IMG/VR virus record: IMGVR_UViG_3300011337_000014 | Span: 1-37,168 of that record | Direction: 5' to 3' (one strand) | DNA: 37,168 nt | Source of the DNA: a virus | Taxonomy: Duplodnaviria > Caudoviricetes | Shown here: one piece after another, positions 685 to 37,168 of the stretch | How positions within the stretch are numbered: the stretch's first letter is position 1 | Layout: the number at the start of each line of letters is the position of its first letter | Notes under the pieces: model-generated | The model's database searches: none | Seen by the model: the letters and a program-made list of their open reading frames with translations, nothing else | What the model was told of the DNA's origin: nothing | Translations under genes and position numbers: made by a program

Positions 685-987
685 ATGGAACTCTTAAACC
701 CTCTGGCAGACACTAATTTTCCAGCCAAGTCCATTTCTTACACTGGCACTGCTGGCGTAACTGGTGCTTGGCCTGCTGGCGCTCAAGGCGTGGTGGTTTG
801 GTCTGACCAAGCGTGCTATGTGTTGGTCGGCGAAGGTGTTACGGCTACAACAGCCAGCACACCCATCCCCCCATTTACACCGATTCCATTCAAAGTGCCT
901 ACCAGCGTTAGCGGTCAGTGGCGCGTGAGTGCGATCCAAGTGTCTACTGGCGGCACAATCTACTGCAAACCAATGAACTCACAATGA
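685..987 (+). CDS. Hypothetical virion-associated protein
   Basis: AAGGA RBS, beta-rich 100 aa, conserved mostly synonymously in second copy. Confidence 0.75.
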   Translation: MELLNPLADTNFPAKSISYTGTAGVTGAWPAGAQGVVVWSDQACYVLVGEGVTATTASTPIPPFTPIPFKVPTSVSGQWRVSAIQVSTGGTIYCKPMNSQ

Positions 988-1148
988 GTTACTTTGGCAT
1001 CCCTATTCGGAACGGTGTTGCCATCGGTATTGGCAACATTATTTCCCTTTTGTCGGGGTATGCCAGTGCAACGGTGCAGGGCAATCTTTTAACTGAGATC
1101 GGCGACAACCTCGTGCAAGAGGATGGCGGTCTAATTTTGTTGGAGTGA
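984..1148 (+). CDS. Small hypothetical protein (54 aa)
   Basis: ATGA overlap with upstream stop; C-terminal LLTExGDNLVQEDGGLILLE motif typical of fibre-associated phage proteins. Confidence 0.7.
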   Translation: MSYFGIPIRNGVAIGIGNIISLLSGYASATVQGNLLTEIGDNLVQEDGGLILLE

Positions 1149-1151
1149 TAA

Positions 1152-1613
1152 ATGGCTGATACAAAAATCTCTGCTCTACCGAGCGCAACCGTCCCACTAG
1201 CGGGTACTGAGGTACTGCCAATTGTGCAGGGCGGTGCAACCACCAAGGTAAGCGCCAACGGCCTGTTCAACAATCCAACAGTGACCAATTACACCGAGGC
1301 GGTTGTTGTCATTGGCACAGTGACCACTACAAACACTATTGCTTTGACCACTGGCACGGTGCAGACTGCAACCCTGACAGCATCCACAGCTTGCACATTT
1401 ACGATGCCTACCGCTACGGCTGGTAAGTCCTTTGTACTGCTACTTAAACAGGCAGCAACCACAGGTAACGGCACAGCAACATTTACGGGTGTAAAGTTTA
1501 ATTCTGCTGGCGCACCAACAATTACTGCAACCGCTGGCAAGATGGACATTTTGACCTTTATTGCTGACGGCACAAACTGGTACGGTTCTGCCTCTCAAGG
1601 GTACACACCATAA
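1152..1613 (+). CDS. Putative fibre/structural protein
   Basis: GGAG RBS; MADTKISALPSAT N-terminus; Thr-rich beta domain. Confidence 0.7.
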   Translation: MADTKISALPSATVPLAGTEVLPIVQGGATTKVSANGLFNNPTVTNYTEAVVVIGTVTTTNTIALTTGTVQTATLTASTACTFTMPTATAGKSFVLLLKQAATTGNGTATFTGVKFNSAGAPTITATAGKMDILTFIADGTNWYGSASQGYTP

Positions 1614-2473
1614 TGTTTGCCGCTAAAAACTTCTTGTTGGCGGGCGGCGGGCCTCTGCCAACTCCGACAGTTGAATACCTTGTTGTCGCTGGTGGCGGCG
1701 GTGGTGGTTCTGGACAAAGTGCAATTGCTGGTGGTGGTGGTGGCGCAGGTGGTTTTTTAACTGCAACTGCCTTTGCAGTTGCATCTGGTTCAGCCATAAC
1801 AGTAACGGTTGGCGCAGGAGGCACAGGCGCAACCGATACAACTCCCAATTCCAACACAAACGGCTCAAATTCTGTATTTAGCACAATCACTTCAACAGGT
1901 GGTGGTTTTGGTGGAACAACTGGAACAGTTACTGGACAAAATGGTGGCTCTGGTGGCGGTGGCTCGGCTAGTTTTTCCGGTGGAACTGGCGTAAGTGGTC
2001 AAGGAAATGCGGGAGGCGTTGGTCAACCATCAGCAGTTTCTTATGGTGGAGGTGGTGGCGGTGCAAGTGCGGCTGGTACAAATGGTTCAAACGCAGTAGG
2101 TGGAACTGGCGGCGCTGGAACAGCATCCTCTATTACAGGCTCAAGCGTAACTTATGCTGGTGGTGGTGGTGGTGGACTAGAAGCCCCCGGAACTCAAGGT
2201 GCTGGAGGTGCTGGAGGTGGTGGTACTGGCAATAATGGCGCGGGTACAAACGGTACAAGTGGAACTGCTAACCTTGGTGGTGGCGGCGGCGGTGCTGGCA
2301 AGTCAACTGGCGGTGCGGCAGTTAATGGTGGCAACGGCGGTTCGGGTGTCGTAATCATTCGCTATGTTGATTCCTACCCTGCTGCAACAGCAACCACAGG
2401 ATCACCCACAATCACGGTTGCTGGTGGCTACCGTGTCTATCAATGGACTGGCTCAGGGAGTATCACATTCTGA
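1613..2473 (+). CDS. Glycine-rich fibre-like protein
   Basis: VEYLVVAGGGGGG ... GGNGGSGVVIIRY glycine-rich domain. Confidence 0.8.
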   Translation: MFAAKNFLLAGGGPLPTPTVEYLVVAGGGGGGSGQSAIAGGGGGAGGFLTATAFAVASGSAITVTVGAGGTGATDTTPNSNTNGSNSVFSTITSTGGGFGGTTGTVTGQNGGSGGGGSASFSGGTGVSGQGNAGGVGQPSAVSYGGGGGGASAAGTNGSNAVGGTGGAGTASSITGSSVTYAGGGGGGLEAPGTQGAGGAGGGGTGNNGAGTNGTSGTANLGGGGGGAGKSTGGAAVNGGNGGSGVVIIRYVDSYPAATATTGSPTITVAGGYRVYQWTGSGSITF

Positions 2474-2817
2474 TGGCACACTTTGCACAACTTAATTCTG
2501 AAAATGTTGTAGACCAAGTTGTCGTTGTTAACAACGATGACGCGCCCGATGAGGCATCTGGTATTGCATTTTTGAATAGCTTATTTGGTAACGGCACTTG
2601 GGTGCAGACCAGCTATAACGGCAACATCCGTAAAAATTACGCTGGTGTTGGTTACACTTATGATTTAGGCCGTGATGCGTTTATTGCACCACAGCCATAC
2701 CCAAGTTGGGTATTGAACGAAAACACTTGTCTTTGGGATTCCCCAGTACCAATGCCCACGGATGGGGATTATTCTTGGGATGAATCAACAACATCTTGGG
2801 TTAGGGCTAGTGCATAA
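2473..2817 (+). CDS. Companion of glycine-rich protein (MAHFA-type)
   Basis: TGATG overlap; MAHFAQL, WVQTSYN, RKNYAGVGYTYD, FIAPQPYPSW motifs usually found next to Gly-rich phage genes. Confidence 0.75.
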   Translation: MAHFAQLNSENVVDQVVVVNNDDAPDEASGIAFLNSLFGNGTWVQTSYNGNIRKNYAGVGYTYDLGRDAFIAPQPYPSWVLNENTCLWDSPVPMPTDGDYSWDESTTSWVRASA

Positions 2818-2849
2818 CCCGAATATCTGATATATTTGTAAAAACCGTA

Positions 2850-2881
2850 CCAGCGAGGTTCACTGGGGAATCGAAGGATTC
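2850..2881 (+). promoter_or_regulatory. Tandem hairpins in scaffold leader, second one occluding the SD
   Basis: CCAGCGA-ggt-TCACTGG and GAATC-gaag-GATTC immediately before ATG 2888. Confidence 0.45.
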
Positions 2882-2887
2882 ATTGAA

Positions 2888-3664
2888 ATGACTGAAGAAG
2901 TCCAAAACCTAGCGGAAGTTGACTCCGTGCCAACACCAAGTGAGACGGCCTCACCGGAAGTTGTAGAAGTTACGCCGGAGACACCAGAGGTAGTCAGCAA
3001 GACATTCTCGCAAGAGGAACTTGATGCTGCAATTGGTAAGCGCCTCGCAAGAGAGCAACGTAAATGGGAACGAGAGCAAGCAAATCGCCAAGCGGAAACG
3101 CAGGTGATGAAAGCTGCACCAACGGCAACCGTTGACCAGTTTGAAAGCCCCGAAGCCTATGCGGAAGCATTGGCCTACTCAAAGGCTGAAGAATTGATCG
3201 CTAGACGAGAAGCCGCCAAGCAGCAATCGCAGGTTCTTGAAAGTTATCACGAGCGTGAGGAAGAAGCGCGGAGCAAATACGAGGACTTTGAACAAGTTGC
3301 GTATAACCCCAAGCTGACAATCACAAATGTGATGGCAGAGACGATCCAATCTTCGGATGTTGGCCCCGACTTAGCCTATTGGCTTGGGACTAACCCCAAA
3401 GAAGCAGACCGTATTTCCAGAATGTCGCCACTCAGTCAGGCAAAGGAAATCGGAAAGATTGAGGCTAAATTAGCTTCTGACCCTCCGGTGAAAAGATCAA
3501 CGTCTGCGCCAGCACCTATTTCGCCAGTTAATGCCCGATCCTCTGGATCACCAGCACTTGACACTACCGACCCACGCTCTATCAAGAGCATGACAACCTC
3601 GGAGTGGATTGCGGCTGACAGGGCAAGACAGATGAAAAAGTGGCAGTCACAGGCTAACCGCTAA
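2888..3664 (+). CDS. Capsid scaffolding protein
   Basis: Acidic N-terminus, TFSQEELDAAIGKRLAREQRK coiled coil, directly upstream of coat gene. Confidence 0.85.
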   Translation: MTEEVQNLAEVDSVPTPSETASPEVVEVTPETPEVVSKTFSQEELDAAIGKRLAREQRKWEREQANRQAETQVMKAAPTATVDQFESPEAYAEALAYSKAEELIARREAAKQQSQVLESYHEREEEARSKYEDFEQVAYNPKLTITNVMAETIQSSDVGPDLAYWLGTNPKEADRISRMSPLSQAKEIGKIEAKLASDPPVKRSTSAPAPISPVNARSSGSPALDTTDPRSIKSMTTSEWIAADRARQMKKWQSQANR

Positions 3665-21077: not shown

Positions 21078-21231
21078 GGCTGCGCTCCTCCAACATCAGG
21101 TCAGCAAACTGATAGGCCAACCTTACGGCTGTCTTTTCGTGGGTAGCGCCAGCAGCCAACTTACCCTGCAAGGCGGCGGCTGCAAAATAGTCGCGCAGCG
21201 TAATCTCTTGTATTGGTATTGGCGTGGTCAT
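21064..21231 (-). CDS. Second small RDYFAA-motif protein
   Basis: ITLRDYFAAAALQG..YQFADLMLEER. Confidence 0.7.
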   Translation of the reverse strand: MTTPIPIQEITLRDYFAAAALQGKLAAGATHEKTAVRLAYQFADLMLEERSRDPA

Positions 21232-22310
21232 ACAAATTTCCCTTTCCATTCCTTGCGTAAGTCAGTCACAAACTCATTCACCAGCGCGGCCTTGTCCTTA
21301 CAGGCGTGTATCTCGGCGCTAGCAAGGTGTGCGACATCAACCGCAGGGTCACCGTTGACAAACTGCTTGTCGCCCAGTTGGTACACCACCGCGTCACCGA
21401 CCATGTCAACGGGGTGCGCTGTCTTGGCAAGCAAGATTGGGATGTAGCGGTGGGAACTACACCCAGTGCGCTGCTTGGTCATTGGCAAGTAATTGTCATA
21501 GGCTGCACAACTCCAAAGAGCTTTGCCCGTCATCTCAGGTGTGGCGTGGGCGCAGGATCGGCAGGTTGGGGCTGGGACATCAGTGCCGTGGCAGATGCTG
21601 TGGTAGTCGCAGAACTTGCACTCGTACCAGCTTGGGTCGGCGCTGATCCCCACAGGTGGCTCGGATGCCGTGATGATTGCTAATGCCTTGTTAACGATGT
21701 CTTTGGCCTCGGCTGCGTCATAGTCGATGCGCTCGGTGTAGATGTCATCGTTGTCTTTGTTGACCACAATGTAAATCGCTCGGCGGCATCCATCGTCACC
21801 AAACTCTGCGATAGACCAATGCATATATGATTGCATCTGCGCGTAGTGTTCGGGCTTGGACTGCTTTACGCCGGATTTCTGCATTTCCTTGTAATACTTG
21901 TCAGACGAGGTTTTGATCTCCAAAATGTGCGGCGACTTCGGTGCTTGGGGTAAACCAGTCACGATGCCATCACAGTTGCCTTGGAAGTGGTGTCCAGTCT
22001 CAGGCTCGGACCAACCAAACTGCTTGCCAGTATTTGGGTTGATGTCAAACACCGTACAACCGATGGCACGCAGGTCGGCATAGACCCGTGGCTCTTGCAA
22101 GTGTCCAGTCTGAAAAACTCGGTACAAGCGGCCTGGGAACTCCGCAGGCTTAGACCAGCGGAATGAGTACCAGTGCTGGCGCAGACAGGGCTTGCCAATG
22201 GCAGATGCCCCAAGGTATGGACGCTGTGACTCAACACCGTACTTTGCCTTGTAATGGGCAAAGATGGCATCGGTCACAGGGTCTACCACCGCAGCGGGTA
22301 GTGTTGCCAT
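21228..22310 (-). CDS. Cas4-like PD-(D/E)xK exonuclease
   Basis: GASAIGKPC, GH.QE, GNCDG, LEIKT, HYAQMQSYM, CKFCDYHSIC. Confidence 0.85.
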   Translation of the reverse strand: MATLPAAVVDPVTDAIFAHYKAKYGVESQRPYLGASAIGKPCLRQHWYSFRWSKPAEFPGRLYRVFQTGHLQEPRVYADLRAIGCTVFDINPNTGKQFGWSEPETGHHFQGNCDGIVTGLPQAPKSPHILEIKTSSDKYYKEMQKSGVKQSKPEHYAQMQSYMHWSIAEFGDDGCRRAIYIVVNKDNDDIYTERIDYDAAEAKDIVNKALAIITASEPPVGISADPSWYECKFCDYHSICHGTDVPAPTCRSCAHATPEMTGKALWSCAAYDNYLPMTKQRTGCSSHRYIPILLAKTAHPVDMVGDAVVYQLGDKQFVNGDPAVDVAHLASAEIHACKDKAALVNEFVTDLRKEWKGKFV

Positions 22311-22311
22311 A

Positions 22312-22791
22312 TTACTTCTTAGCCCAAGCTGGTGCTTTGGACACGGGCGCAGCGGGAGCAACGTCTGCCACAGGCGCTAAGAATGCGGGTACAGAACCGC
22401 CAGCAGACTCGTAGCCCTTGATGTTGTTGCTGGCTTGGTACTCGCCCTTGGCCTCACGCACCACCACCTTGATGGTGACTGGCTTGTGGTGCAAAGCGGC
22501 GGTGTCTTGCAGCTTGATGACATTCACGGCATGGCACAGAGCGCTAAGTTGCGACTGGGCAATGCGTTGGGTGTCTTCGTTGCTGTGCTGGATGTTGAGG
22601 TTCTCCCAGATGCGGCGACCCTTGTACTGACCATCAATAATCTCAAAGGTCAGCTTGAGGCCAGTGCCATTGCCTGATTTCAAAGGCTGCACATCAGAGT
22701 CAATGCACTGTGCAAGGTAAGTGCCAGCGGGAACTGGGCCAGATGATGCTTGGGGGGCAACGGTCGATGCGTCAAAAGTAAAAGAAGCCAT
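22312..22791 (-). CDS. DUF669-like putative ssDNA-binding protein
   Basis: PVPAGTY, LKLTFEIIDGQYKGRRIWENLN; between Sak4-like and exonuclease genes. Confidence 0.78.
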   Translation of the reverse strand: MASFTFDASTVAPQASSGPVPAGTYLAQCIDSDVQPLKSGNGTGLKLTFEIIDGQYKGRRIWENLNIQHSNEDTQRIAQSQLSALCHAVNVIKLQDTAALHHKPVTIKVVVREAKGEYQASNNIKGYESAGGSVPAFLAPVADVAPAAPVSKAPAWAKK

Positions 22792-22826
22792 TTTGTTTTC
22801 CTAAAAGTTAAGGTTGGACTGAAAGA

Positions 22827-23573
22827 TCAAGATTGCGCTGCGGTCAGCGCGTCTTGGAATGCCGCCCAGTCAAGCGGCATATTGGTAAGGCCAAAACGGT
22901 TTCCACCGCAATGTGCTGGATGAGGTTCAACATGAAGGATGCGCTCGCCTGTGGTTGTGGCCTTGGTTTCCTTGTTGCCAAAGCCAGCATCTGTCTTGCT
23001 GGTGAAAATGCGGTAGCCTGCGTAGCCAACCACATCAGCCCACTCAAGCACCAGTCCTGCGGCGCGGTCGTGCAGCTTTAGGACATGGGAGTCGTAGCCT
23101 TCGGTCAGGGGGTCTTCAATGCGCTTGATCTTGTCGTGGGCAATCAAGATGATGCCCATGCTTTTCTGAGCGCGTAAGACTTCCAAGCCAGAGAGTAAGT
23201 TGCGCCATTCTTCGGCGGCTGCGACATAGCCCTTACCAAAGCCTGGTGCTTCGATATTCTTCCAATTGTTGGCCTTGCAGACATAGTCCTGCACCAACGG
23301 CTCAAGCCAGTCGAGCGAGTCCAAGAACAGGGTTTGGAACTCATGGTCCTGATTGATAAGGGTGTCGATGGCAGCGTAGACATCCTGCAAGCTAGATGCC
23401 AGCGGGAAGGCGTTGGCGTTGACAGCGTCAGCACCGTCTTCGGTCAGGATACCAATGGCGTTTGGCGCCATAGCAGCAAAGGTGGTCTTACCGATCTTGC
23501 CTTGGCCTACCAAGACAATCTTGGGGGCGCGTACTCGTTTGGTTTTGGAAATGCTTTTGAGGTCGAATGCCAT
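22827..23573 (-). CDS. Sak4-like (AAA_24) recombination ATPase
   Basis: GQGKIGKTT, TLFLDSLDWLE, IILIAH. Confidence 0.85.
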   Translation of the reverse strand: MAFDLKSISKTKRVRAPKIVLVGQGKIGKTTFAAMAPNAIGILTEDGADAVNANAFPLASSLQDVYAAIDTLINQDHEFQTLFLDSLDWLEPLVQDYVCKANNWKNIEAPGFGKGYVAAAEEWRNLLSGLEVLRAQKSMGIILIAHDKIKRIEDPLTEGYDSHVLKLHDRAAGLVLEWADVVGYAGYRIFTSKTDAGFGNKETKATTTGERILHVEPHPAHCGGNRFGLTNMPLDWAAFQDALTAAQS

Positions 23574-25241: not shown

Positions 25242-27299
25242 ATGACATCCCTAACAACAATCTTCCCAAATGGTTTTGCGGCTGCTACTGAGAGCCAAGA
25301 CCTTGTAAACCCCATTGATGGGTTTCGGCGGCACTGTGAGGCATCAGGCTTGCTGGTCAAGGAGATCATCCCTGACGGTGAGATACACCGCGTGGCTCAT
25401 GTGTCAAGTAAGAAGGGTGCATTGGATGGTTGGTACATCCTTCACACCAGTGGCAAGATTCCTGTGGGTATAGCAGGGTGCTGGAAAGAGCCAACCTTTG
25501 AGGCCAAGTGGGTGGCTGACATTGGGCGGTCCATGTCGTTCACTGAGCGCTTTGAGCATGACAAGTGGGTCAATGAGATCAAGGCCAAGAAAGAGGCTGA
25601 TCGGTTGGTGTCACAGGCTGTGGCTGCTGAGAAGGCAGAGGATGAGGTGGGGACATATGCTGATGCGTCTGCTGACCATCCGTACCTTGTGCGAAAGCAC
25701 ATTGAGCCACATGGGATAAAGATTGATCGCGCTGGTCGGTTGGTTGTGCCAGTCATTGACCAGCACGGTGAGATATTGAGTTACCAAACCATTGATGCAG
25801 AGGGGAATAAGCGGTTCTTGAAGGGTGGCAAGATTGAGGGTGGGTTCTATGAGTTGCGCGGTAATCGCAAGATCGTGTTCGTGGGTGAGGGGTTTGCCAC
25901 CTGTGCATCGATCCATGAGGCAACGGGGTACACGGTGATGGTGGCGTTTGACTGTGGCAATCTTGCTAAGGTAGCCAAGAGCGCAAAAGAGATGTTCCCT
26001 AACGCTAGGATTGTGATTGGCGCTGACAATGACCAGTGGACGGATGGCAATCCTGGTGTTACCAAAGGTCGTGCTGCTGCGGGGCTGGTGTTTGGTGAGA
26101 TCGTGTACCCCATATTTAGCGAGTCTGACATGACGGACAACAAGCCAACAGACTTCAATGACCTGCACTGCTTGCAGGGGCTGGATGCCGTAAAAGACCA
26201 AATTGAGCGCGTGGCTGGGCCAGTCAAAGACAAGCTGGCGTTTGAATTCAGCAGGGTGGACAGCCTAAAGCTGACAGAAATCAAGTGGATCGTGGATGAT
26301 TACATCGAAAGTGACAGTTTGGCGCAGGTGTTCGGTGACCCAGGCGGCGGTAAGTCGTTTGTGGCTATCGACATTGCCTGCTGCGTAGCAACGGGGTCGG
26401 CGTGGCACGGTCACCAAGTCAAGCAAGGGGCAGTGTTCTACATTGCGGGGGAAGGGCATAACGGCCTTGCACGGCGGTTCAAGGCGTGGGAACTGGGCAA
26501 CGGCATATCGCTGTCTGGCGCACCAATATTTAAAAGCCACAGGGCAGCGCAACTGTATGACGCAACAGAGGCTGCGCTGGTGGCGGTGTCGATCAAGCAA
26601 CTCAGCGAGGAGGCAGGCTGCGTTCCATCGATGATTGTGATTGACACATTAGCAAGAAATATGGGGGGTGACGAAAATAGCACCCAAGACATGAATGCCT
26701 TTATCCAGCACATTGATAACTACCTGCGCCAAGTCTGGAATTGCTCGGTCATCATCGTTCACCACAGCGGGACGATGGACAAGGACAGGGGTCGGGGGTC
26801 TAGCGCTTTGAAGGGTGCGCTAGATGCTGAGTACCGCGTGGCGTTGGACTCAGGCACTAAGACCATCCAGTTTGAGAATAAGAAGATGAAGGATGCTGAG
26901 ATGCCCATCCCTAAGAACTTTCAGATCACTCAGGTGGACTTACCGATCCTCGATAAGCATAACCTGCCAGTTAAGGGGGCGTACCTGACCACTGTGGACA
27001 TCAGCGGGTTGGTGAGCCAAGTACAGAAAAAGACCTACCTTTCACCAAACCAGATACAGGTGATGAAGTGCTTGGTGATGCTAGAAACCAAGCGATTCCA
27101 AGACCAACAAGCTCACCCAGTGAGCTATGACGAATGGCGTGAAAGTGCCAAAGAACACAATGTAAAGAACAATAGGTTCTGGGAAGTGGTCAAGAATTTG
27201 GTGTCCAAGGCGATGGTTGTGGAGGTCAATGGTGGGTATAAGAGCCATCCGAAAGCATCCGAAAGTGAGCCAAATAGTATAGTTTCGGATGACAAATAA
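25242..27299 (+). CDS. Primase-helicase (TOPRIM plus RepA/AAA_25 helicase, probable C-terminal winged helix)
   Basis: VGEGFAT, GADND, DFND TOPRIM motifs; GDPGGGKS, VIDT, IVHH, RGSSAL helicase motifs. Confidence 0.9.
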   Translation: MTSLTTIFPNGFAAATESQDLVNPIDGFRRHCEASGLLVKEIIPDGEIHRVAHVSSKKGALDGWYILHTSGKIPVGIAGCWKEPTFEAKWVADIGRSMSFTERFEHDKWVNEIKAKKEADRLVSQAVAAEKAEDEVGTYADASADHPYLVRKHIEPHGIKIDRAGRLVVPVIDQHGEILSYQTIDAEGNKRFLKGGKIEGGFYELRGNRKIVFVGEGFATCASIHEATGYTVMVAFDCGNLAKVAKSAKEMFPNARIVIGADNDQWTDGNPGVTKGRAAAGLVFGEIVYPIFSESDMTDNKPTDFNDLHCLQGLDAVKDQIERVAGPVKDKLAFEFSRVDSLKLTEIKWIVDDYIESDSLAQVFGDPGGGKSFVAIDIACCVATGSAWHGHQVKQGAVFYIAGEGHNGLARRFKAWELGNGISLSGAPIFKSHRAAQLYDATEAALVAVSIKQLSEEAGCVPSMIVIDTLARNMGGDENSTQDMNAFIQHIDNYLRQVWNCSVIIVHHSGTMDKDRGRGSSALKGALDAEYRVALDSGTKTIQFENKKMKDAEMPIPKNFQITQVDLPILDKHNLPVKGAYLTTVDISGLVSQVQKKTYLSPNQIQVMKCLVMLETKRFQDQQAHPVSYDEWRESAKEHNVKNNRFWEVVKNLVSKAMVVEVNGGYKSHPKASESEPNSIVSDDK

Positions 27300-27430
27300 T
27301 CATCCGAATTAGCATCCGAATCATCCGAAAGCATCCGAATTCATCCGCGTGACTGCCACTCCAATCATCCGAAACTATCCTCCTAGGTATACATACCTAG
27401 GATGGATTCGGATGGAAAGCAGTTCGGATG
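27246..27430. repeat. Putative replication origin: CATCCGAA iterons plus palindrome
   Basis: 7 direct copies (27246, 27256, 27301, 27313, 27322, 27332, 27366), 3 inverted (27284, 27407, 27423), TCCTAGGTAT-ac-ATACCTAGGA at 27381-27402. Confidence 0.8.
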
Positions 27431-27482
27431 ATGTAGGAAGGATGGCGGTGGGTTTTTGGGGAATTGAGAAAAAGGGGAAAAT

Positions 27483-27818
27483 GTGATCGAACTGGATGTG
27501 GACATGAAGGTGGTTAGTGTGGCTAACATGAGGATGCATTGGGCGGTGAAAGCAAGGTTGACGAAGGATCATCGCAAAAAGGCGTATAACGCACTTTGTG
27601 CGGTGGCTGCACCTCCTGCCCCACCTTGCACGGTTGTGTTGACTAGGGTAGCGCCAAGGGCGTTGGATGGGGATAATCTGCAATCAGCGTTCAAAGCGGT
27701 GAGGGATGGTGTCGCTGATTGGCTTGGGGTTGATGACGGGGATCAGCGCTTGGATTGGCAGTATCGCCAGCGCTCGGCTGGGGTGAAGGTGTACAGGGTT
27801 GAGATTGAGGTGATCTGA
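27483..27818 (+). CDS. rusA: RusA-like Holliday junction resolvase
   Basis: LDGDNLQSAFKAVRDGVADWLGVDD catalytic pattern. Confidence 0.75.
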   Translation: MIELDVDMKVVSVANMRMHWAVKARLTKDHRKKAYNALCAVAAPPAPPCTVVLTRVAPRALDGDNLQSAFKAVRDGVADWLGVDDGDQRLDWQYRQRSAGVKVYRVEIEVI

Positions 27819-27946
27819 TTGTCGCCAGAATGGCGTTTGGATTACTTTGTTGGGTTGGGGTTTGTTTGGTTTGTTTGGGGTTGTCGAATGTCGCTGGGGG
27901 CGACTCGCGATGACATTTCTATTGATTACGCGTACGCGCAGGGGTA

Positions 27947-28471
27947 ATGATGAAGACTTTGGCTGAAAAGACTACAAAAAACGGTGCAATCATGGGGCGA
28001 CCAGTGAAATGGCCTCAAGACCATCCAGTTTGGGGTGAGATCGTTTACAGGGTCAGCGCAGGCAAAAGCCTATCTACCGTGCTGCGCGATCCCGATCTCC
28101 CGTCTTGGCCTATGTTCTACGCCATGATGGAGCAAGACCCAAAGCTGCGCCAGGCTTACGATAAGGCAGTCCAAGACCGTGCTGACCGCATGGCTGATGA
28201 AATACTGGAGTTGTCAGACATGGAGATGCCCGAAGGACTAGAAGGCGCTATGGCCTCGGCATGGGTACAGCAAAAGCGTATGCAGGTGGACGCACGCAAG
28301 TGGATCGCCAGCAAGCTAAAGCCCCGCACGTATGGCGACCGCATCGATGTCGCTGTGACCGACACACGCATCTCAGTGATCGATGCATTGGAGGCAGCGC
28401 AGGCTAGAGTGGTAAAGCAACTGACTGTTCAAGATGTGACAGACATAGTTCCAAAAGAGACATCTACTTAA
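27947..28471 (+). CDS. terS: Terminase small subunit (Sf6-like)
   Basis: GRP, GKSL..V..D..LPS, ADEILELSD, QVDARKWIASKLKPRTYGDR. Confidence 0.85.
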   Translation: MMKTLAEKTTKNGAIMGRPVKWPQDHPVWGEIVYRVSAGKSLSTVLRDPDLPSWPMFYAMMEQDPKLRQAYDKAVQDRADRMADEILELSDMEMPEGLEGAMASAWVQQKRMQVDARKWIASKLKPRTYGDRIDVAVTDTRISVIDALEAAQARVVKQLTVQDVTDIVPKETST

Positions 28472-28493
28472 TACGATGACCATTATGTTAATA
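28466..28493 (+). other. XerCD dif-like site
   Basis: ACTTAATACGA-tgacca-TTATGTTAATA; 11-6-11 layout, right arm 9/11 to E. coli XerD arm TTATGTTAAAT. Confidence 0.7.
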
Positions 28494-28503
28494 GCCAAGT
28501 CGG

Positions 28504-28591
28504 TTATCAACAGGATATACAGACCGAAAGGGTCATGTCATGGGTTATGCACAGGGTAATGTGGACATCATGTCATTCGCCCTGTGGATAA
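28504..28591. promoter_or_regulatory. DnaA-box cluster
   Basis: TTATCAACA 28504, TTATGCACA 28545, TGTGGACAT 28560, TGTGGATAA 28583 (perfect). Confidence 0.7.
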
Positions 28592-28710
28592 GTCGGTGGC
28601 TGCGGATGCGGAATGCAAATCATTCGCATCTGGCACGGCATCGGGCGGCATGGCCTGCGGTGGGTGGCCCGACCGACTGGCCCAAAGGGGGGGGGTGGGT
28701 CCGGCGCGAA

Positions 28711-28760
28711 AGGGCCGCGGTAACGGTGGCCCTGCACACAATTTTATTTTTATTTTTTTA
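28711..28760 (+). terminator. GC hairpin followed by T-rich tract
   Basis: AGGGCCGC-ggtaacg-GTGGCCCT, then after ~8 nt TTTTATTTTTATTTTTTT. Confidence 0.4.
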
Positions 28761-28783
28761 TAAATTGATTTATCATCCCCCCC

Positions 28784-30307
28784 ATGCCAACCTACAACAA
28801 CGCCCTGACTAACCAGCCAGCCAACCGTTTGGCTTACCCTGGTGGACTCGCCAAGCGTGGCGGATCATTAGATTCGTTTGTGCCTTTGGATTACAGCAGA
28901 CTGGCAGCAGGTCAGTTTAGGCAAGACACACCACAGATGCGTGAGTATGCGGCGAATGTCCCAGTTGATGTGATGCGCGGAAGGTTGGCAGGGATGCTAG
29001 GTTTCCCAAGTGATGTTTTGAATATGTTTAGAACACCATCGCCAATGGAGATGTTTGGGCAGACGGATTACGAGCAACCAACACAAGTGCCGTATGGATC
29101 GGAACAGTTTCTTAAAACGCTGCCACTAGCACCAGCAGAAAACAATCCACTAGGTCGTGTTGCTAATCGAGCTGGTTCGCTTGTACCGTTTACACCAATG
29201 GAAGCATTGCAAGCAGCACGAATGGCGAGACAGGCTGCAATGGCAACAGGCAGAGCTGGTGAGCGTTACGCAGAGAGAGTAGTCCCACAGATCATGGAGC
29301 GCGGTGGGCTTGGTGCTGAGATGCTGCAAGGTTTGTCGCAAGGGGCAAGAAGCAATGCTGTACCACCATCTGGCAGAAGTGGCTTTGGTGCTTTTGATCC
29401 TCGCTATGACCCACGGGTTTTAGAGCAGCCTAGATTGCAGTCAATGACCCGCGACATTCAATTGAATCCGAATGTGCAAACAGCGCCAACAGTTTCTTTG
29501 GCTGATTTTGAGGGTAGGCCGTTTATTACGAGCATGGCTGACCGCACAGCCGCAGGTGGTAAGTTGCTTGGCATCGACAATGTGCCGTTTAACAGACCAG
29601 TAGATTTGTTGGGTGGTCAAGACTTTATGTTCAACAACCCAGGCTTGGTTTGGTCATCTGGCAATGCGCCATCAAAGGCGTTGATGAAATATGCCGATGA
29701 GATCAAAAATATTACTGGGCAAAATCCGTTGTATGTGCCTTATCGCATGGCCCCGACTGGCGGTGATTTTGCTCAAATGACTGGTGAGACTATGTTGTCT
29801 TACGCTGATGCGGCTATGAACAAAACGCAAAAAAATAAGTTTGACAAGTCAATTAAGAAATTTATTCCTGACTGGGCTGGTGTGTCTGATCCAACAAGTG
29901 TTGCTCAGTTTAGGGCTGCGCCAGACAGCAAGCGCAAGGCCATCAAAAAAATGATGGACAGAGATTTCCGAGATGAAGGTGGTTTGAATATTGGCGGCGC
30001 AAGATTGGCTGTGTCTGACCCAGCGCAATTGGCAGCGCAAGAGGGTGGCATCCAAAATGTGGGTGAGATATTTGCAGGCAGTCCCATACTTAAATCAAGC
30101 CACCCAGCTTACCCAAGCGGCGTGCAAGGCCAAGGCATTGGCACATTGGCTGAAGACCGCAATATTTTTGAATTGTTGCCAGGCGTTGTCAAGGCGCGAA
30201 ATATGCCTGACCCAAAAAATCCAAGGGCTTCAGATTTAAGGGCAATGCAGATGCACCCTTACGCTGGCATCATCACCAACGAGTTGCTCAAGAATCTTGG
30301 CTATTGA
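28784..30307 (+). CDS. 507-aa hypothetical protein, possibly packaged/ejected
   Basis: Long ORF between terS and terL; composition like internal virion proteins; no SD. Confidence 0.8.
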   Translation: MPTYNNALTNQPANRLAYPGGLAKRGGSLDSFVPLDYSRLAAGQFRQDTPQMREYAANVPVDVMRGRLAGMLGFPSDVLNMFRTPSPMEMFGQTDYEQPTQVPYGSEQFLKTLPLAPAENNPLGRVANRAGSLVPFTPMEALQAARMARQAAMATGRAGERYAERVVPQIMERGGLGAEMLQGLSQGARSNAVPPSGRSGFGAFDPRYDPRVLEQPRLQSMTRDIQLNPNVQTAPTVSLADFEGRPFITSMADRTAAGGKLLGIDNVPFNRPVDLLGGQDFMFNNPGLVWSSGNAPSKALMKYADEIKNITGQNPLYVPYRMAPTGGDFAQMTGETMLSYADAAMNKTQKNKFDKSIKKFIPDWAGVSDPTSVAQFRAAPDSKRKAIKKMMDRDFRDEGGLNIGGARLAVSDPAQLAAQEGGIQNVGEIFAGSPILKSSHPAYPSGVQGQGIGTLAEDRNIFELLPGVVKARNMPDPKNPRASDLRAMQMHPYAGIITNELLKNLGY

Positions 30308-30500: not shown

Positions 30501-30528
30501 ATTCTATCAAATGGCTAGATAAATGCAA
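30501..30528 (-). promoter_or_regulatory. Sigma70-like leaderless promoter
   Basis: TTGCAT (30528-30523), 16 nt, extended -10 TGaTAGAAT, then 6 nt to ATG. Confidence 0.55.
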
Positions 30529-32049
30529 CTCCCAATCTACAAAGGCGAAGACGAACAAAAGTTGATGATTGAGCTGTGGTCGCCAGCAATCGCTGATGAC
30601 CTAGAGGCTTTTGTCTTGTACGCCTTCCCTTGGGGTCAGAAGAACACCCCACTGGCTAAGTTCAGTGGCCCACGCAAGTGGCAAAGAGAGGTGCTGCGAA
30701 ATGTGACTACGCACATCAGGGCGCAAAAGGGCAAGGTTAACTTTGATACGATTAGGGAGGCAGTATCCAGCGGTCGAGGCATCGGCAAGTCTGCGCTTGT
30801 CAGTTGGCTGGTCCTTTGGATGCTGACAACCCGCATTGGTGGCTCGGTGGTTGTCTCTGCCAACAGCGAGAATCAGTTGAGATCAGTCACATGGGCAGAG
30901 TTGACCAAGTGGTCGGCAATGTTGATTAACGCCCACTGGTGGGAAATCAGCGCGACCAAGCTAGTGCCGGCGAAGTGGTTGACTGATCTGGTTGAGAAAG
31001 ACCTCAAAAAAGGTACGCGCTACTGGGCCTGTGAGGGCAAGCTGTGGTCAGAAGAAAACCCTGACTCCTACGCAGGTGTCCACAATCAGGACGGCATGAT
31101 GCTGATCTTTGATGAGTCCAGCGGTATCCCCGACCCTATCTGGGAGGTTGGCGCAGGCTTCTTTACCGAGAACACCCCTGATCGGTACTGGTTTGCATTC
31201 TCCAACCCACGGCGCAACAACGGCTATTTCTTTGAGTGCTTTCACTCCAAGCGCAACTTTTGGACAAGTCGGTCGGTAGACGCACGCACGGTGGAAGATA
31301 CTGACAAGGCGATCTACGAGCAGATCATTGCCGAGTACGGCGAAGACTCCAGCCAGGCCAGAGTCGAGGTCTATGGTGAGTTCCCTGCCAGTGGCGAGGA
31401 TCAGTTCATTGGTTCTTTGTCAGTTGACGATGCAATGAAGCGCCCCAAGTACAAGGACATGACCGCCCCCATCGTGGTCGGTGTTGATCCTGCCCGCGGT
31501 GGCATGGACAGCACGGTGATTGTGGTGCGACAAGGCAGAGACATCATTGCCATCAAGCGCTTCAAGGGTGATGACACCATGACCACGGTGGGAAATGTAA
31601 TTGATGCCATCGAGGAGTACAAGCCAGCCCTAACGGTCATTGATGAGGGTGGCCTTGGCTACGGAATACTTGACAGACTAGCAGAACAACGGTACAAAGT
31701 GCGTGGGGTCAACTTTGGCTCGAAGGCAAAGCAGTCTATTGCGTTTGGAAACAAACGCGCTGAGATGTGGAATGACATGAAGAACTGGCTGAAGACCGCC
31801 AGCATTCCAAGTGACCGACAACTGAAGGCCGACCTGGTTGGGCCTATGAAGAAGCCCAACTCATCGGGTACAATTTTCTTGGAAGGCAAGAAGGAAATGA
31901 AGTCAAGAGGCTTGGCAAGTCCCGATGCAGCGGATGCGCTGGCGGTGACATTTGCGTTTCCTGTTGCACATCGAGAGTACAATGGCAGAATGGAGCGCCG
32001 AGTCGTTCAAGAACGCGGCGCTGTATCAACGGGTTGGATGGGGTCTTAA
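30523..32049 (+). CDS. terL: Terminase large subunit
   Basis: SGRGIGKS Walker A, LIFDES Walker B, FSNP, GVDPARGGMD nuclease, SPDAADALA. Confidence 0.95.
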   Translation: MQLPIYKGEDEQKLMIELWSPAIADDLEAFVLYAFPWGQKNTPLAKFSGPRKWQREVLRNVTTHIRAQKGKVNFDTIREAVSSGRGIGKSALVSWLVLWMLTTRIGGSVVVSANSENQLRSVTWAELTKWSAMLINAHWWEISATKLVPAKWLTDLVEKDLKKGTRYWACEGKLWSEENPDSYAGVHNQDGMMLIFDESSGIPDPIWEVGAGFFTENTPDRYWFAFSNPRRNNGYFFECFHSKRNFWTSRSVDARTVEDTDKAIYEQIIAEYGEDSSQARVEVYGEFPASGEDQFIGSLSVDDAMKRPKYKDMTAPIVVGVDPARGGMDSTVIVVRQGRDIIAIKRFKGDDTMTTVGNVIDAIEEYKPALTVIDEGGLGYGILDRLAEQRYKVRGVNFGSKAKQSIAFGNKRAEMWNDMKNWLKTASIPSDRQLKADLVGPMKKPNSSGTIFLEGKKEMKSRGLASPDAADALAVTFAFPVAHREYNGRMERRVVQERGAVSTGWMGS

Positions 32050-33074: not shown

Positions 33075-35299
33075 TGGCTGATTACACAGGAATTGCCGCT
33101 GCTGGCGCTGTATCAAACGGTGGTTCTGCAAAGGACAAGAGCAGTTCCGACATTCTCGCTACCGCACGCAGTCGCCTTGACATGGCGATCTCTGCGTTGT
33201 CAGAGTCGCGTGAAGACGAGATTGATGACCTGCGTTTCTACGCTGGCTCACCGGACAATCATTGGCAATGGCCTGCTGACGTACTTGCTACCCGTGGTGC
33301 AGTACAAGGCCAAACGATCAACGCACGCCCGTGCCTGACTATCAACAAACTACCCCAACACGTTAAACAAGTTACGAATGACCAAAGACAAAATAGACCA
33401 AGTGGTAAGGTCATTCCTGCTGACGACAATGCAGACGTGGAAATTGCCGAAATCTTTAATGGATTGGTACGCCACATCGAATACATCTCTGATGCCGATG
33501 TCGCCTATGACACAGCGTGCGAGAACCAAGTCTCCTATGGAGAGGGATACATCCGGCTGCTGACTGAGTATTGTGACGAAAACACATTTGACCAAGACAT
33601 CAAGATTGGGCGAATCCGCAATTCTTTCAGCGTCTATATGGACCCGACCATCCAAGACCCTTGCGGCGCGGATGCAAAGTATTGTTTTATTACCGAAGAC
33701 ATCCCCAAAGCAGAATACGAGCGCCTGTATCCCAATTCAGCGCCCATTACAACTTTGCAATCTTTGGGTGTGGGCGACCAATCCATCTCCAACTGGCTCA
33801 ATGAAAACACAGTCCGCATTGCTGACTACTACTACATTGACTATGACCGTGCTACATTGAATTTGTACCCCGGCAACTTAACAGCGTTTGAGGGTACGCC
33901 CGAAGACAAACAATTTAAGGCAATTTATGGAAAACCTAAAAAATCTCGTGAATCTGATCGTGTCAAAGTTAAATACTGCAAGATCAACGGTTATGAAATT
34001 CTTGAAGAACGTGATTGGGCGGGGAAATACATCCCAGTAGTTCGCGTTGTTGGCAATGAATTTGAGGTTGATGGGCGTTTGTACCTGTCTGGCCTAGTCC
34101 GAAATGCAAAAGATGCACAGCGGATGTACAACTACTGGGTATCTCAAGAGGCTGAGATGCTGGCACTTGCACCAAAAGCCCCATTTATCGGCTACGGTGG
34201 TCAGTTTGAAGGTTACGAAGACAAGTGGAAGACCGCAAACACGACAAATTGGCCTTACCTAGAGGTAAACCCTGATGTGACTGACGGTTCTGGCGCTGTT
34301 TTGCCATTACCACAACGCGCCCAGCCCCCAATGGCATCTAGCGGCCTGTTGCAAGCCAAAGCTGGCGCTTCCGAAGACATTAAATCGACAACGGGTCAAT
34401 ACAACGCTAGTTTGGGCATGGGAAGCAACGAACGCTCAGGAAAAGCAATTCTTGCGCGTCAACGTGAAGGTGATGTGGGTACTTACCACTACGGCGACAA
34501 CCTCGCCCGTGCGGTACGCCACATCACTCGCCAGATCGTTGACCTTGCGCCTAAGATTTACGACACACAACGCGTGGCGCGGATCATCGGCGAAGACGGT
34601 GAAACCGACATGGTCAAGATTGACCCCATGCAGCAAGAACCAGTCAAGAAAATTTTTGATCCTATGAACCCATCGGTAGTGATAGACAAAATCTATAACC
34701 CTGCCGTGGGTAAGTACGATGTGGTGGTAACCACAGGCCCCGGCTACGCAACCAAGCGCCAAGAGGCACTTGAGGCAATGGCGCAGTTGCTGCAAGGCAA
34801 CCCACAATTGTGGCAAGTGGCTGGTGATCTGTTTGTCAAAAACATGGATTGGCCTGGCGCACAGGAAATGTCAAAACGCTTTGCCAAAACCATCGACCCC
34901 AAACTCATGGAAGACGGCGACAAGTCGCCAGAGTTGCAGGCTGCTGAACAACAAATGCAGGCAATGGGCGCTGAGATGGATCAGATGCACCAAATGATTA
35001 CCAATGTCGGCAAGTCGATTGAGATGCAAGACATGAAGCGCAAAGACTACGAGGCCGAGATCAAGGCGTACCAAGCCGAGACACAGCGCATTAGCACAGT
35101 TCAAGCCAGTATGTCACCAGAGCAGATTCAAGACATCGTGATGGGTACAATCCACGCAGCAATGGATTCTGGCGATATTGTGAACGGATCACCAGAAATG
35201 CGTGAACCCGCAGAAATGCCTGAGATGCCTGAGATGCCAATGGAACAACAAGGTATGGAGCAAATGCCACCACAAGGAATGCCAAATGAAATGCAATGA
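33074..35299 (+). CDS. Portal protein, P22 gp1-like
   Basis: 741 aa; RPCLTINKL, GLVRNAKDAQRMYNYW, SGKAILARQREGD, YDVVVTTGPGYATKRQE; Gln/Met-rich barrel. Confidence 0.95.
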   Translation: MADYTGIAAAGAVSNGGSAKDKSSSDILATARSRLDMAISALSESREDEIDDLRFYAGSPDNHWQWPADVLATRGAVQGQTINARPCLTINKLPQHVKQVTNDQRQNRPSGKVIPADDNADVEIAEIFNGLVRHIEYISDADVAYDTACENQVSYGEGYIRLLTEYCDENTFDQDIKIGRIRNSFSVYMDPTIQDPCGADAKYCFITEDIPKAEYERLYPNSAPITTLQSLGVGDQSISNWLNENTVRIADYYYIDYDRATLNLYPGNLTAFEGTPEDKQFKAIYGKPKKSRESDRVKVKYCKINGYEILEERDWAGKYIPVVRVVGNEFEVDGRLYLSGLVRNAKDAQRMYNYWVSQEAEMLALAPKAPFIGYGGQFEGYEDKWKTANTTNWPYLEVNPDVTDGSGAVLPLPQRAQPPMASSGLLQAKAGASEDIKSTTGQYNASLGMGSNERSGKAILARQREGDVGTYHYGDNLARAVRHITRQIVDLAPKIYDTQRVARIIGEDGETDMVKIDPMQQEPVKKIFDPMNPSVVIDKIYNPAVGKYDVVVTTGPGYATKRQEALEAMAQLLQGNPQLWQVAGDLFVKNMDWPGAQEMSKRFAKTIDPKLMEDGDKSPELQAAEQQMQAMGAEMDQMHQMITNVGKSIEMQDMKRKDYEAEIKAYQAETQRISTVQASMSPEQIQDIVMGTIHAAMDSGDIVNGSPEMREPAEMPEMPEMPMEQQGMEQMPPQGMPNEMQ

Positions 35300-35648
35300 T
35301 TTTATGGGAATGTTATTTTTAGCCCGTGATGTAACTCACAGTGTTCATTTGAACACCCGCAGTTACTCTAAGCACGTTGCTCTCAACATTTTCTATGACC
35401 GCATTATTGGTGCTGCCGATGACTTTGCCGAGGCTTACCAAGGCAGACACGGTATGATTGGGCCAATTAGCCTGATGTCTGCCAAAAAAACGACCAATGT
35501 AATTGAGTTCTTGCAAGACCAGCTTGACGAGATCGAAAAGTGCAGATATGAAGTAGTTGACAAATCAGACTCATCGCTGCAACAATTGATTGACAACATT
35601 ATTGAAATTTATTTACGCACGATTTATAAATTGAAGTACCTTGCATGA
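35286..35648 (+). CDS. Ferritin/Dps-like protein, allele 2
   Basis: Allele of 313-675 with altered C-terminus (IYKLKYLA vs LYKLRFLA). Confidence 0.7.
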   Translation: MKCNDFMGMLFLARDVTHSVHLNTRSYSKHVALNIFYDRIIGAADDFAEAYQGRHGMIGPISLMSAKKTTNVIEFLQDQLDEIEKCRYEVVDKSDSSLQQLIDNIIEIYLRTIYKLKYLA

Positions 35649-36244
35649 AAAAACGAGAAGCAAAAGCCTTTAGCTTAAAGTTTTATAACACGGGAAAACC
35701 GTGTAAGCATGGGCATTTGTCAGACAGATATACAAGCACCGCTGTTTGTGTTGAATGCATAAAAATTGCAAGTGTTGATAAGTATAAAAATAACCGTGAT
35801 TCTCAACTTGCTTCTTGGCGTAAATGGCACGAGTCAAACAAAGATATTCACGGAATTCGTGTTAAGCGTTGGCAATCAGCTAACAAAGACAAAGTAAAAG
35901 CAGACGCAAAAGCATGGGCAGCAGCAAACCCTGACAAAGTTAAAGCCAAAGCACTTCGGCACATTAAAAAACATCCTGACGCATATACTGCGCGTGCTGT
36001 GGCAAGTGTTGCCAAAAGGGCTAAACGTGTGCCACAATGGCTTACTTCAGAGGATAGGTGGTTAATGCGTGAAGCCTATTCACTTGCTAAACTAAGAACA
36101 GAATTGTTCGGGTTTAAGTGGGAAGTTGACCACATAATTCCTTTGCGTGGTAATCTAGTTTCTGGGCTTCATGTGCCAACAAATTTGCAGGTATTGCCCA
36201 AGACAGAAAACCGTAGCAAAAGAAATTATTATTTGTTGAAATAA
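35645..36244 (+). CDS. Free-standing HNH homing endonuclease
   Basis: YNTGKPCKHGH..CVEC Zn motif; WEVDHIIPLRG..GLHVPTNLQVLPKTENRSK HNH; absent from copy 1. Confidence 0.9.
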   Translation: MKKREAKAFSLKFYNTGKPCKHGHLSDRYTSTAVCVECIKIASVDKYKNNRDSQLASWRKWHESNKDIHGIRVKRWQSANKDKVKADAKAWAAANPDKVKAKALRHIKKHPDAYTARAVASVAKRAKRVPQWLTSEDRWLMREAYSLAKLRTELFGFKWEVDHIIPLRGNLVSGLHVPTNLQVLPKTENRSKRNYYLLK

Positions 36245-36254
36245 GGAGAATATT

Positions 36255-36557
36255 TTGGAACTCTTAAACCCTCTGGCAGACACCAATTTTCCAGCTAAGT
36301 CCATTACTTACACCGGCACTGCTGGTGTAACTGGTGCTTGGCCTGCTGGCGCTCAAGGCGTGGTGGTTTGGTCTGACCAAGCGTGCTATGTTTTGGTTGG
36401 CGAAGGTGTTACGGCTACAACAGCCAGCACACCCATCCCCCCATTTACACCGATTCCATTCAAAGTGCCAAGCAGCGTTAGCGGTCAGTGGCGCGTGAGT
36501 GCGATCCAAGTGTCTACTGGCGGCACGATCTACTGCAAACCAATGAACTCACAATGA
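36255..36557 (+). CDS. Allele 2 of 685-987
   Basis: Near-identical protein; TTG start after TAAGGAG. Confidence 0.75.
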   Translation: MELLNPLADTNFPAKSITYTGTAGVTGAWPAGAQGVVVWSDQACYVLVGEGVTATTASTPIPPFTPIPFKVPSSVSGQWRVSAIQVSTGGTIYCKPMNSQ

Positions 36558-36718
36558 GTTACTTTGGCATCCCTATTCGGAACGGTGTTTCCATTGGTCT
36601 TGGAAGCATTATTTCCCTTTTGTCGGGGTATGCCAGTGCAACGGTGCAAGGCAATCTTTTAACTGAGATCGGCGACAACCTCGTGCAAGAGGACGGCGGT
36701 CTAATTTTGTTGGAGTGA
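36554..36718 (+). CDS. Allele 2 of 984-1148
   Basis: Near-identical protein. Confidence 0.7.
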   Translation: MSYFGIPIRNGVSIGLGSIISLLSGYASATVQGNLLTEIGDNLVQEDGGLILLE

Positions 36719-36721
36719 TAA

Positions 36722-37168
36722 ATGGCTGATACAAAAATCTCTGCTCTACCGAGCGCAACCGTCCCCCTAGCGGGTACTGAGGTACTGCCAATTGTGCAGG
36801 GCGGCGCGACTACCAAGGTAAGCGCAAACGGCCTGTTTAACAATCCAACAGTAACCAACTATACCGAGGCAGTCGTTGCCATTGGCACAGTGACCACTAC
36901 AAACACTATTGCTTTGACCACTGGCACGGTGCAGACTGCAACTTTGACCGCATCTACGGCTTGCACGTTCACAATGCCTACCGCTACGGCTGGTAAGTCT
37001 TTTGTGCTGCTGCTTAAACAGGCAGCGGCTACGGGTAACGGTACAGCAACATTTACGGGTGTAAAGTTTAATTCTGCTGGCGCACCAACAATTACTGCAA
37101 CCGCTGGCAAGATGGACATTTTGACCTTTATTGCTGACGGCACAAACTGGTACGGTTCTGCCTCTCAA
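36722..37168 (+). CDS. Allele 2 of 1152-1613, truncated by window end
   Basis: MADTKISALPS.. near-identical. Confidence 0.75.
   Translation, partial: MADTKISALPSATVPLAGTEVLPIVQGGATTKVSANGLFNNPTVTNYTEAVVAIGTVTTTNTIALTTGTVQTATLTASTACTFTMPTATAGKSFVLLLKQAAATGNGTATFTGVKFNSAGAPTITATAGKMDILTFIADGTNWYGSASQ

Follow-up and report, generated by a model that had tools for sequence, protein, structure and literature searches.

A dif-like XerC/XerD site with fixed DnaA-like boxes behind the small terminase gene of a freshwater podophage: a possible means of joining the genome ends

The window (the whole stretch of DNA analysed here, 37,168 nucleotides) is the complete virus record of a podophage, carrying P22-like portal and coat genes, an Sf6-like terminase small subunit gene (terS), a primase-helicase, Sak4, an exonuclease, SSB and a small repressor-like gene. 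Its two ends overlap (1-1598 against 34974-37168, 95-96% identical), which puts the unit genome at about 35.0-35.6 kb; the overlap was considered as the phage termini and rejected, being an assembly overlap. One copy of it holds an HNH/endonuclease VII gene (35645-36244 versus 648-685), a sign of two co-occurring strain variants. A candidate replication origin is provided by ATCCGAA / TTCGGAT repeats that cluster at 27240-27430, where the primase-helicase gene ends. The features that concern us are the following.

21228..23573, minus strand: Cas4-like exonuclease, SSB and Sak4-like annealing protein (phrog_1990, phrog_6015, phrog_124)
27483..27818, plus strand: likely RusA-like Holliday junction resolvase, just upstream of terS (phrog_9203, E 0.12)
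27947..28471, plus strand: terminase small subunit, Sf6-like (phrog_1482, E 3e-30; PF20901, E 4e-27)
27967..28580, no strand: inferred terminal repeat of 0.6-0.8 kb, over which mean contig depth about doubles in runs X11, X7 and X9; borders +/- about 100 nt
28466..28476, plus strand: XerC-type arm ACTTAATACGA, 10/11 to the left arm of Rhodoferax ferrireducens dif, kept in relatives
28477..28482, plus strand: central spacer TGACCA, 6 bp, 3 positions unlike the host TGTATA
28483..28493, plus strand: XerD-type arm TTATGTTAATA, matching the host dif arm, kept in relatives
28504..28512, plus strand: DnaA-like box TTATCAACA, offset +38 (same offset in 71/120 viral pattern loci)
28545..28553, plus strand: DnaA box TTATGCACA, offset +79 (same offset in 76/120 viral pattern loci)
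28560..28568, minus strand: degenerate DnaA-like box, 2 mismatches to TTATCCACA, offset +94 (box with at most 1 mismatch there in 58/120)
28583..28591, minus strand: DnaA box TTATCCACA, offset +117 (+117 and +118 in 38 and 29 of 120)
28687..28765, plus strand: G-run, GC-rich motif and T-rich tract on the terL side, seen by eye in 16 relatives
30523..32049, plus strand: terminase large subunit, terL (phrog_2, E 1.6e-42)

The first-pass annotation had described the phage as integrase-less, and as far as our searches reach this holds: no integrase family matched among the 58 window ORFs scanned, tyrosine recombinases (PF00589) were found in 0 of 30 near-complete related or site-bearing genomes and nowhere in the window, and serine resolvases (PF00239) in 0 of 18 genomes and again nowhere in the window. 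The product of the ORF just upstream of terS is likely, on weak evidence, a RusA-like Holliday junction resolvase, with an Atlas feature score of 0.93 (208 shared), RusA on 25% of the cluster members and no PDB sequence match. Between terS and terL, the ORF at 28784-30307 (507 aa) found no family in PHROGs, Pfam, NCBIfam or Atlas; it is variably present in relatives, which have its N-terminus in common, and since it stands beside the site in some of them only, we did not take it for an Xer activator.

The element itself, ACTTAATACGA-TGACCA-TTATGTTAATA (28466-28493, plus strand), has an 11-6-11 layout and contains the terS stop codon TAA (28469-28471) within its left arm, just as first annotated; TTATGTTAA occurs exactly once in the window. 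When the dif arms of R. ferrireducens (sequence from the table in PMC2731167, with an identical sequence in locus L081) were used as a pattern allowing up to 3 mismatches, the site was the sole match in the window, and none of 100 dinucleotide-shuffled windows gave any match. Against this dif, the left arm agrees at 10/11 positions, the right arm at 9/11 and the spacer at 3/6. About 390 stretches of GTDB genomes match the arm pattern, and among the 120 of them analysed the exact right arm recurs in 36 and the exact left arm in 2, while the spacer is of the host type in 116 (TGTATA in 99); the named matches are mostly Comamonadaceae. In 3 of 5 complete chromosomes the bacterial match lies at 0.50-0.53 of chromosome length, the other 2 being MAG chromosomes whose start is unknown. 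The phage element shows what is looked for in xrs sites, namely 11-bp arms around a 6-8 bp centre, an XerD arm that is best conserved, a centre that is not, and arms that match the dif of a plausible host. Judged by its arms and layout, it is an XerC/XerD-type site, and its arms, compared letter by letter, are those of Comamonadaceae dif. The earlier description of a conserved XerD arm and a Comamonadaceae-type left arm is thereby upheld in a comparison with bacterial dif sites, and its suggestion that the site may identify the host stands at the level of the family and not of the genus, with Rhodoferax, Limnohabitans, Polaromonas, Ottowia and their kin as candidates by arm match. One viral contig (L314:299) has arms identical to those of the window around a host-type spacer, TGTGTA; this may be either a true IMEX or a piece of a host chromosome.

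Conservation in relatives, a check that the first-pass annotation had named, was found throughout: the site stands just after terS in 80 of 80 IMG/VR relatives, the best 80 of 339 matches (terS identity 53-100%). Its start falls from -5 to +238 nt relative to the end of the terS stop, and overlap with the stop codon is specific to the window's lineage. Wherever a metagenome locus extends 320 nt or more beyond terS, the site is present (64 of 64), and the other 16 either show it (10) or end before reaching it (6); many of these contigs are duplicates of the IMG/VR set. A pattern scan of IMG/VR independent of terS yielded about 510 matching viral stretches. Among the first 80 pattern loci, 57 have a site-adjacent ORF in one of three clusters, of which all 6 members tested were terS; the rest comprise 4 loci after an O-like replication gene, 13 with no ORF and 6 with other ORFs. 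In the O-like group (L209, L220, L263 and L268, near 5001), the site sits 20 nt past the replication initiator gene instead of terS. Identity of terL to that of the window goes down to about 30% in site-bearing loci. Exact-quality sites occur once per genome, the sole exception (G021) being an assembly overlap, so that this second copy was rejected as a terminus.

What varies among the phages is the spacer. Across 193 distinct phage contexts it takes 29 forms with a mean of 3.7 G+C in 6 (host spacer, 1), TGTATA occurring in none and TGTGTA in one, whereas site positions 18-23, 25 and 26 are invariant in all 193; the searches themselves account for part of this invariance of the arms, and the terS-selected set gives the same pattern. 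At the spacer edges, position 12 is a pyrimidine in 191 and position 17 a purine in 190 of the 193. Fixed arms around a free spacer that is never TGTATA bear the signature of a site that recombines with itself.

The cassette to which the site belongs extends beyond its 28 bp. DnaA-like boxes (consensus as given also in bioRxiv 10.1101/866236) lie at fixed offsets from the site: +38, +79, +94, +104 and +117/118 in one cassette type, and -28, +37 and +48 in the other. At least two boxes are present in 61 of 63 unique terS loci, where their density is 6.4 per kb near the site versus 0.46 per kb elsewhere, and for viral pattern sites it is 6.7 per kb nearby, versus 0.07 per kb for host dif (116 sites, 4 of them with one box within 250 nt). 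The boxes fall mostly on the XerD side, the XerC side in the window being terS coding sequence. In 7 of the 80 relatives the site is inverted, and the boxes flip together with it as one cassette, whereas the G-run/GC-rich/T-rich tract keeps its place; the tract is possibly a packaging or end signal. In two of the inverted loci (L043, L046, L049, L057, L062, L064 and L070), AAGTAAG...ACTAAC repeats flank the cassette, and none were seen in non-inverted loci. A quick terS tree places the window among phages with CGGG-type spacers, yet it bears the other cassette type, which suggests that the cassette has been swapped as a module. Other motifs stayed at background: IHF sites are not enriched, with 1 in 32.9 kb near the site versus 27 in 306.7 kb far from it; KOPS GGGNAGGG, an E. 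coli motif, occurs 2 times in the window versus 3.5 expected; and a promoter/terminator scan returned no more matches than chance. Like the phage site, chromosomal dif of Comamonadaceae has the 11-6-11 layout, arms agreeing as given above and a single copy per unit genome; the phage site differs in being phage-borne, in its GC-rich, non-host spacer, in the adjoining DnaA boxes and in the lack of KOPS enrichment.

The site is absent from nine phage records (DSL-LC05, P26218, MW202483, VvAW1, BA3, 1.211.A, DU_RP_II, MW202898 and C72C1), eight of them more distant phages and one with an unrelated terL. DSL-LC05 and MW202483 (terL 72% and 67%) are the closest structural relatives, and the head module can therefore do without the site. 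In MW202483 (L204), a palindromic TGTTTACGTAAACA-like repeat array is found at 28205-28450, upstream of the terminase region. Searches by blastn gave weak or unrelated matches only, for the site or Comamonadaceae dif against INPHARED, and weak matches only, for the cassette against plasmids.

Contig depth provides a view of where the site lies in the packaged genome. Phages with direct terminal repeats give one read-start peak per strand with twofold coverage between the peaks, and pac phages give steps of 1/(C+1), as described in PMC5557969. Our values are mean depths of contigs and not copy numbers (20 runs, all contigs), and those that bear on the question come from 6 runs of 2 studies, all possibly the source of the window DNA. 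In X11 the depth is 95.4 on the left, 187.5 over 27967-28577 and 83+6 / 87.3 on the right; in X7 it goes from 50.8 to 85.8 over 27967-28783 and back to 47.9 (581 doubled words); in X9, from 48.7 to 70 over 26988-28655 and back to 47.2 (764 doubled words). The excess over terS and the cassette in these three runs thus amounts to 581-764 doubled words, and that in X1, X3 and X5 (763-3110 words) is at least as large as, or noisier than, a doubling of 0.6-0.8 kb predicts. Run X13, a mix of relatives, was left out. Contigs of X1, X3, X5 and X9 run unbroken through both putative borders, yet with excess depth, which makes it unlikely that a second phage joins and leaves there. From the roughly twofold depth over 27967-28580 we infer a terminal repeat of 0.6-0.8 kb, either exact or derived from mostly single headfuls, and terS with the dif-like site likely lies within it, as far as mean contig depths can tell. 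A P22-like portal with an Sf6-like terS usually means headful packaging, in which case two copies of the site would occur in first headfuls only. The class of its terminase does not point to one particular mode of packaging. Contig ends in relatives showed no sharp pile-up: 28 of 120 fell within 500 nt versus 13.4 expected, and this marker of the terminus became weak once duplicates were removed and the remainder oriented (107 of 127). Within 600 nt there were then 15 ends on the terS side, where about 8-9 would be expected, and 7 on the terL side, where the expectation is about 10. The first-pass annotation, whose account of the site itself is borne out, had missed both the fixed DnaA-box array and this likely position in a terminal repeat.

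The fixed DnaA array and the likely terminal-repeat position favour a reaction that joins the ends of the phage's own DNA. Our proposal, to which we give a little better than an even chance, is that host XerC/XerD recombines the two end copies of the site and so circularises the injected linear genome. The terminase would cut near the start of terS, whereby each virion would carry the site twice in direct repeat; host XerC and XerD would bind both end copies, and their recombination would yield a circle with one copy. Identical spacers would allow exchange between phage sites, and the mismatch to TGTATA would keep the phage off the chromosome, much as different spacers keep chromosomes apart in multi-chromosome bacteria (PMC2731167). 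Two direct end copies would also tolerate inversion, in keeping with the cassette flipping as a unit, and the same site could join or resolve concatemers later in infection.

The weakest step of this proposal is how the Xer reaction would be activated and licensed. According to PMC9226527 and bioRxiv 10.1101/2024.04.05.588136, the Xer reaction normally depends at dif on FtsK and at plasmid sites on PepA, with ArgR or ArcA bound at the XerC side. In the phage, the reaction would be licensed without cell division, and DnaA on the XerD side may act as an architectural helper, a role for which we found no precedent; alternatively, XerC alone might perform the exchange and leave the Holliday junction to be completed by replication or the RusA-like protein. 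Xer-free annealing of a 0.6 kb repeat would be within reach of the phage's own Sak4, exonuclease and SSB. Given this route and the nine records without the site, Xer may be a speed-up or a back-up.

Among the other readings, the one that fares best, and that we still consider unlikely, is that the phage has a circular form, theta-replicating or plasmid-like, whose dimers or multimers the site resolves in the manner of psi and cer; the first-pass annotation had offered multimer resolution alongside integration. The DnaA boxes would then be an origin or accessory sequence, and the nearness to terS incidental. A self-type spacer ending in CCA like that of psi, the lack of a resolvase of the phage's own in our searches, the DnaA array, the primase-helicase, the small repressor-like gene, the lineage with the site after an O-like replication gene and the similar sites borne by integrase-primase islands of host chromosomes are all consistent with it. 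It leaves unexplained, however, the doubled depth and the fact that the site comes after terS in clusters of this gene as distant as the three found, and ParA family proteins (PF13614) were found in 0 of 31 genomes.

Somewhat less probable again is a purely binding role, with no recombination, in which XerC/XerD and DnaA would occupy the terminal cassette as a protein cap or roadblock that might shield the end from host exonucleases, tether it to the membrane, bound packaging or titrate DnaA. The cassette is situated about 90-150 nt away from the putative right end, nothing that would act as an Xer activator is apparent, and DnaA arrays in the T5 terminal repeat have been proposed to act by binding alone (10.1101/866236). 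Yet the spacer keeps 6 bp and biased edges (12 pyrimidine, 17 purine), as at cleavage positions, an argument weakened by the fact that the search itself imposes 6 bp and that cooperative binding, too, requires this length. A polar roadblock also agrees poorly with a cassette that is inverted in 7 of 80 relatives.

We consider integration at host dif, where the site would serve as attP for XerCD in the manner of VGJphi, TLCphi and CTXphi (IMEX), unlikely, indeed improbable enough to rank well below both readings above. The arms match host dif, no integrase was found, and 34 of the 193 phage spacers begin with TGT as in the host, which could permit a XerC-only exchange of the VGJphi type; this mechanism, and the need of an IMEX for a spacer homologous to that of dif at least in its XerC half, are described in PMC5357621, and an inovirus at dif in 10.1101/633727. 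The spacer of the window, however, is unlike TGTATA on both halves (TGA versus TGT, CCA versus ATA), the host spacers are missing or nearly so from the phage sites, and a spacer ending in CCA occurs in 0 of 120 bacterial matches. Nor did host genomes, mostly incomplete MAGs, offer a prophage of this family joined to dif, the check proposed at first pass, or an integrated copy with hybrid sites. There, terL matched in 3 of 127 genomes (genus of Limnohabitans sp. Rim11) and 5 of 159 (genus of R. saidenbachensis), all distant prophages or small contigs, the two closest (65% and 57%) on contigs of 4.0 and 14.5 kb; the site was in 0 of 10 terL match loci and 0 of 5 extended stretches around them, and no loose contig end at the site appeared among those listed. 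A pattern for spacers with A, C or G at the third position detected phage-type spacers in 3 of 401 family genomes, each time within an integrase-primase island. The phage resembles IMEX in that no integrase was found, and departs from them in spacer homology and in that the genomes searched held no integrated copy.

These Burkholderiaceae islands deserve mention in their own right. Satellite-like, with a P4-type integrase and a DUF927 primase (AlpA in one), they carry an Xer site with a phage-type spacer (CGGGCG, GTGGCG or GAGGCG) a few hundred nt past the integrase, some with 1-2 DnaA-like boxes (L553:10005, L554:10116, L555:10178 and L556:2191 in G423, G532, G668 and G005; also L128:3001), and are possibly satellites with an Xer self-site of their own.

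Finally, a functionless relic is scarcely credible despite the absence of the site from the eight more distant phages and the record with unrelated terL, given its fixed arms and free spacer and a cassette that moved, inverted and was swapped as a unit, and a chance look-alike is ruled out by the shuffles and by the conservation in 80 of 80 relatives.

Among known systems, plasmid sites share several features with the phage site. The psi spacer of pSC101, GATCCA, ends as TGACCA does (plasmid records), and the common left-arm end in the phages, TACAA, is that of cer (ColE1). Both plasmid sites have, as the phage site does, a non-dif centre and fixed-offset protein boxes beside the core, and are of the self-recombining type proposed for it. 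They differ in that psi and cer have about 200 bp of PepA/ArgR/ArcA accessory sequence on the XerC side, whereas the phage site has DnaA-like boxes, chiefly on its XerD side, and in that the carrier here is a tailed phage, with linear terminal repeats as the likely substrate. Phage P1 circularises through loxP in its terminal redundancy. Its Cre-loxP system resembles the use proposed here, being site-specific recombination on the phage's own DNA, except that P1 encodes Cre, whereas the recombinase here would be host XerC/XerD and no plasmid partition gene was found. Multimer resolution by Cre-loxP is covered in PMC10999674. The phage site, as we read it, works like psi/cer and P1 loxP and is a member of neither. 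The IMEX (CTXphi, VGJphi, TLCphi, GGI) likewise combine the lack of an integrase with a dif-like site for host XerCD, but the known phage IMEX are filamentous, satellite or tailless, with an attP that has XerC-side homology. The terminal repeat of T5, like the window, has conserved, precisely spaced DnaA boxes in its non-coding part; it is, however, a 10-kb repeat with two-step injection, and the available part of 10.1101/866236 mentions no Xer site.

Cultured phages provide a further parallel. E. coli dif matches 388 INPHARED records, many of them rV5-like. Hena1 has GGTGCGCATAA-GGTGTA-TTATGTTAAAT inside an annotated 519-bp terminal repeat, and EdH4 a dif copy with a TGGGTA spacer at 170-198, each at two places in its record; these copies are not annotated there, and we found no paper on them. 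Such Vequintavirinae share with the window dif arms and an altered spacer in or at a terminal repeat, and differ from the window phage in being large enterobacterial myoviruses with E. coli-type arms. Near-perfect E. coli dif, mostly unannotated, was also seen in rV5-like phages, in the 54-kb Escherichia phages 18-1-2/19-1-2/24-2-1 and in some microviruses (H167-H225). In the literature searched, in which few subscription papers were covered, we found no mention of XerCD sites within the terminal repeats of tailed phages. We put forward, as a tentative generalisation with clearly less than an even chance, that many tailed phages, from freshwater podophages to rV5-like coliphages, may hijack XerC/XerD in their terminal repeats to circularise their genomes and that DnaA, as a novel accessory factor, may free XerCD here from FtsK/PepA control.

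The hijacking of XerCD is already known from integration by filamentous, satellite and tailless phages and from plasmid dimer resolution. If our proposal is true, tailed phages that look lytic would add a third use, the joining of their own ends; this would supply a mechanism for how short-terminal-repeat phages circularise, and, with a DnaA-dependent Xer reaction, would reveal a new mode of control. The cultured rV5-like coliphages together with E. coli K-12 lay the end-joining idea open to direct test. For the abundant uncultured freshwater phages represented by the matching IMG/VR stretches, the arms give a family-level tag of the host.
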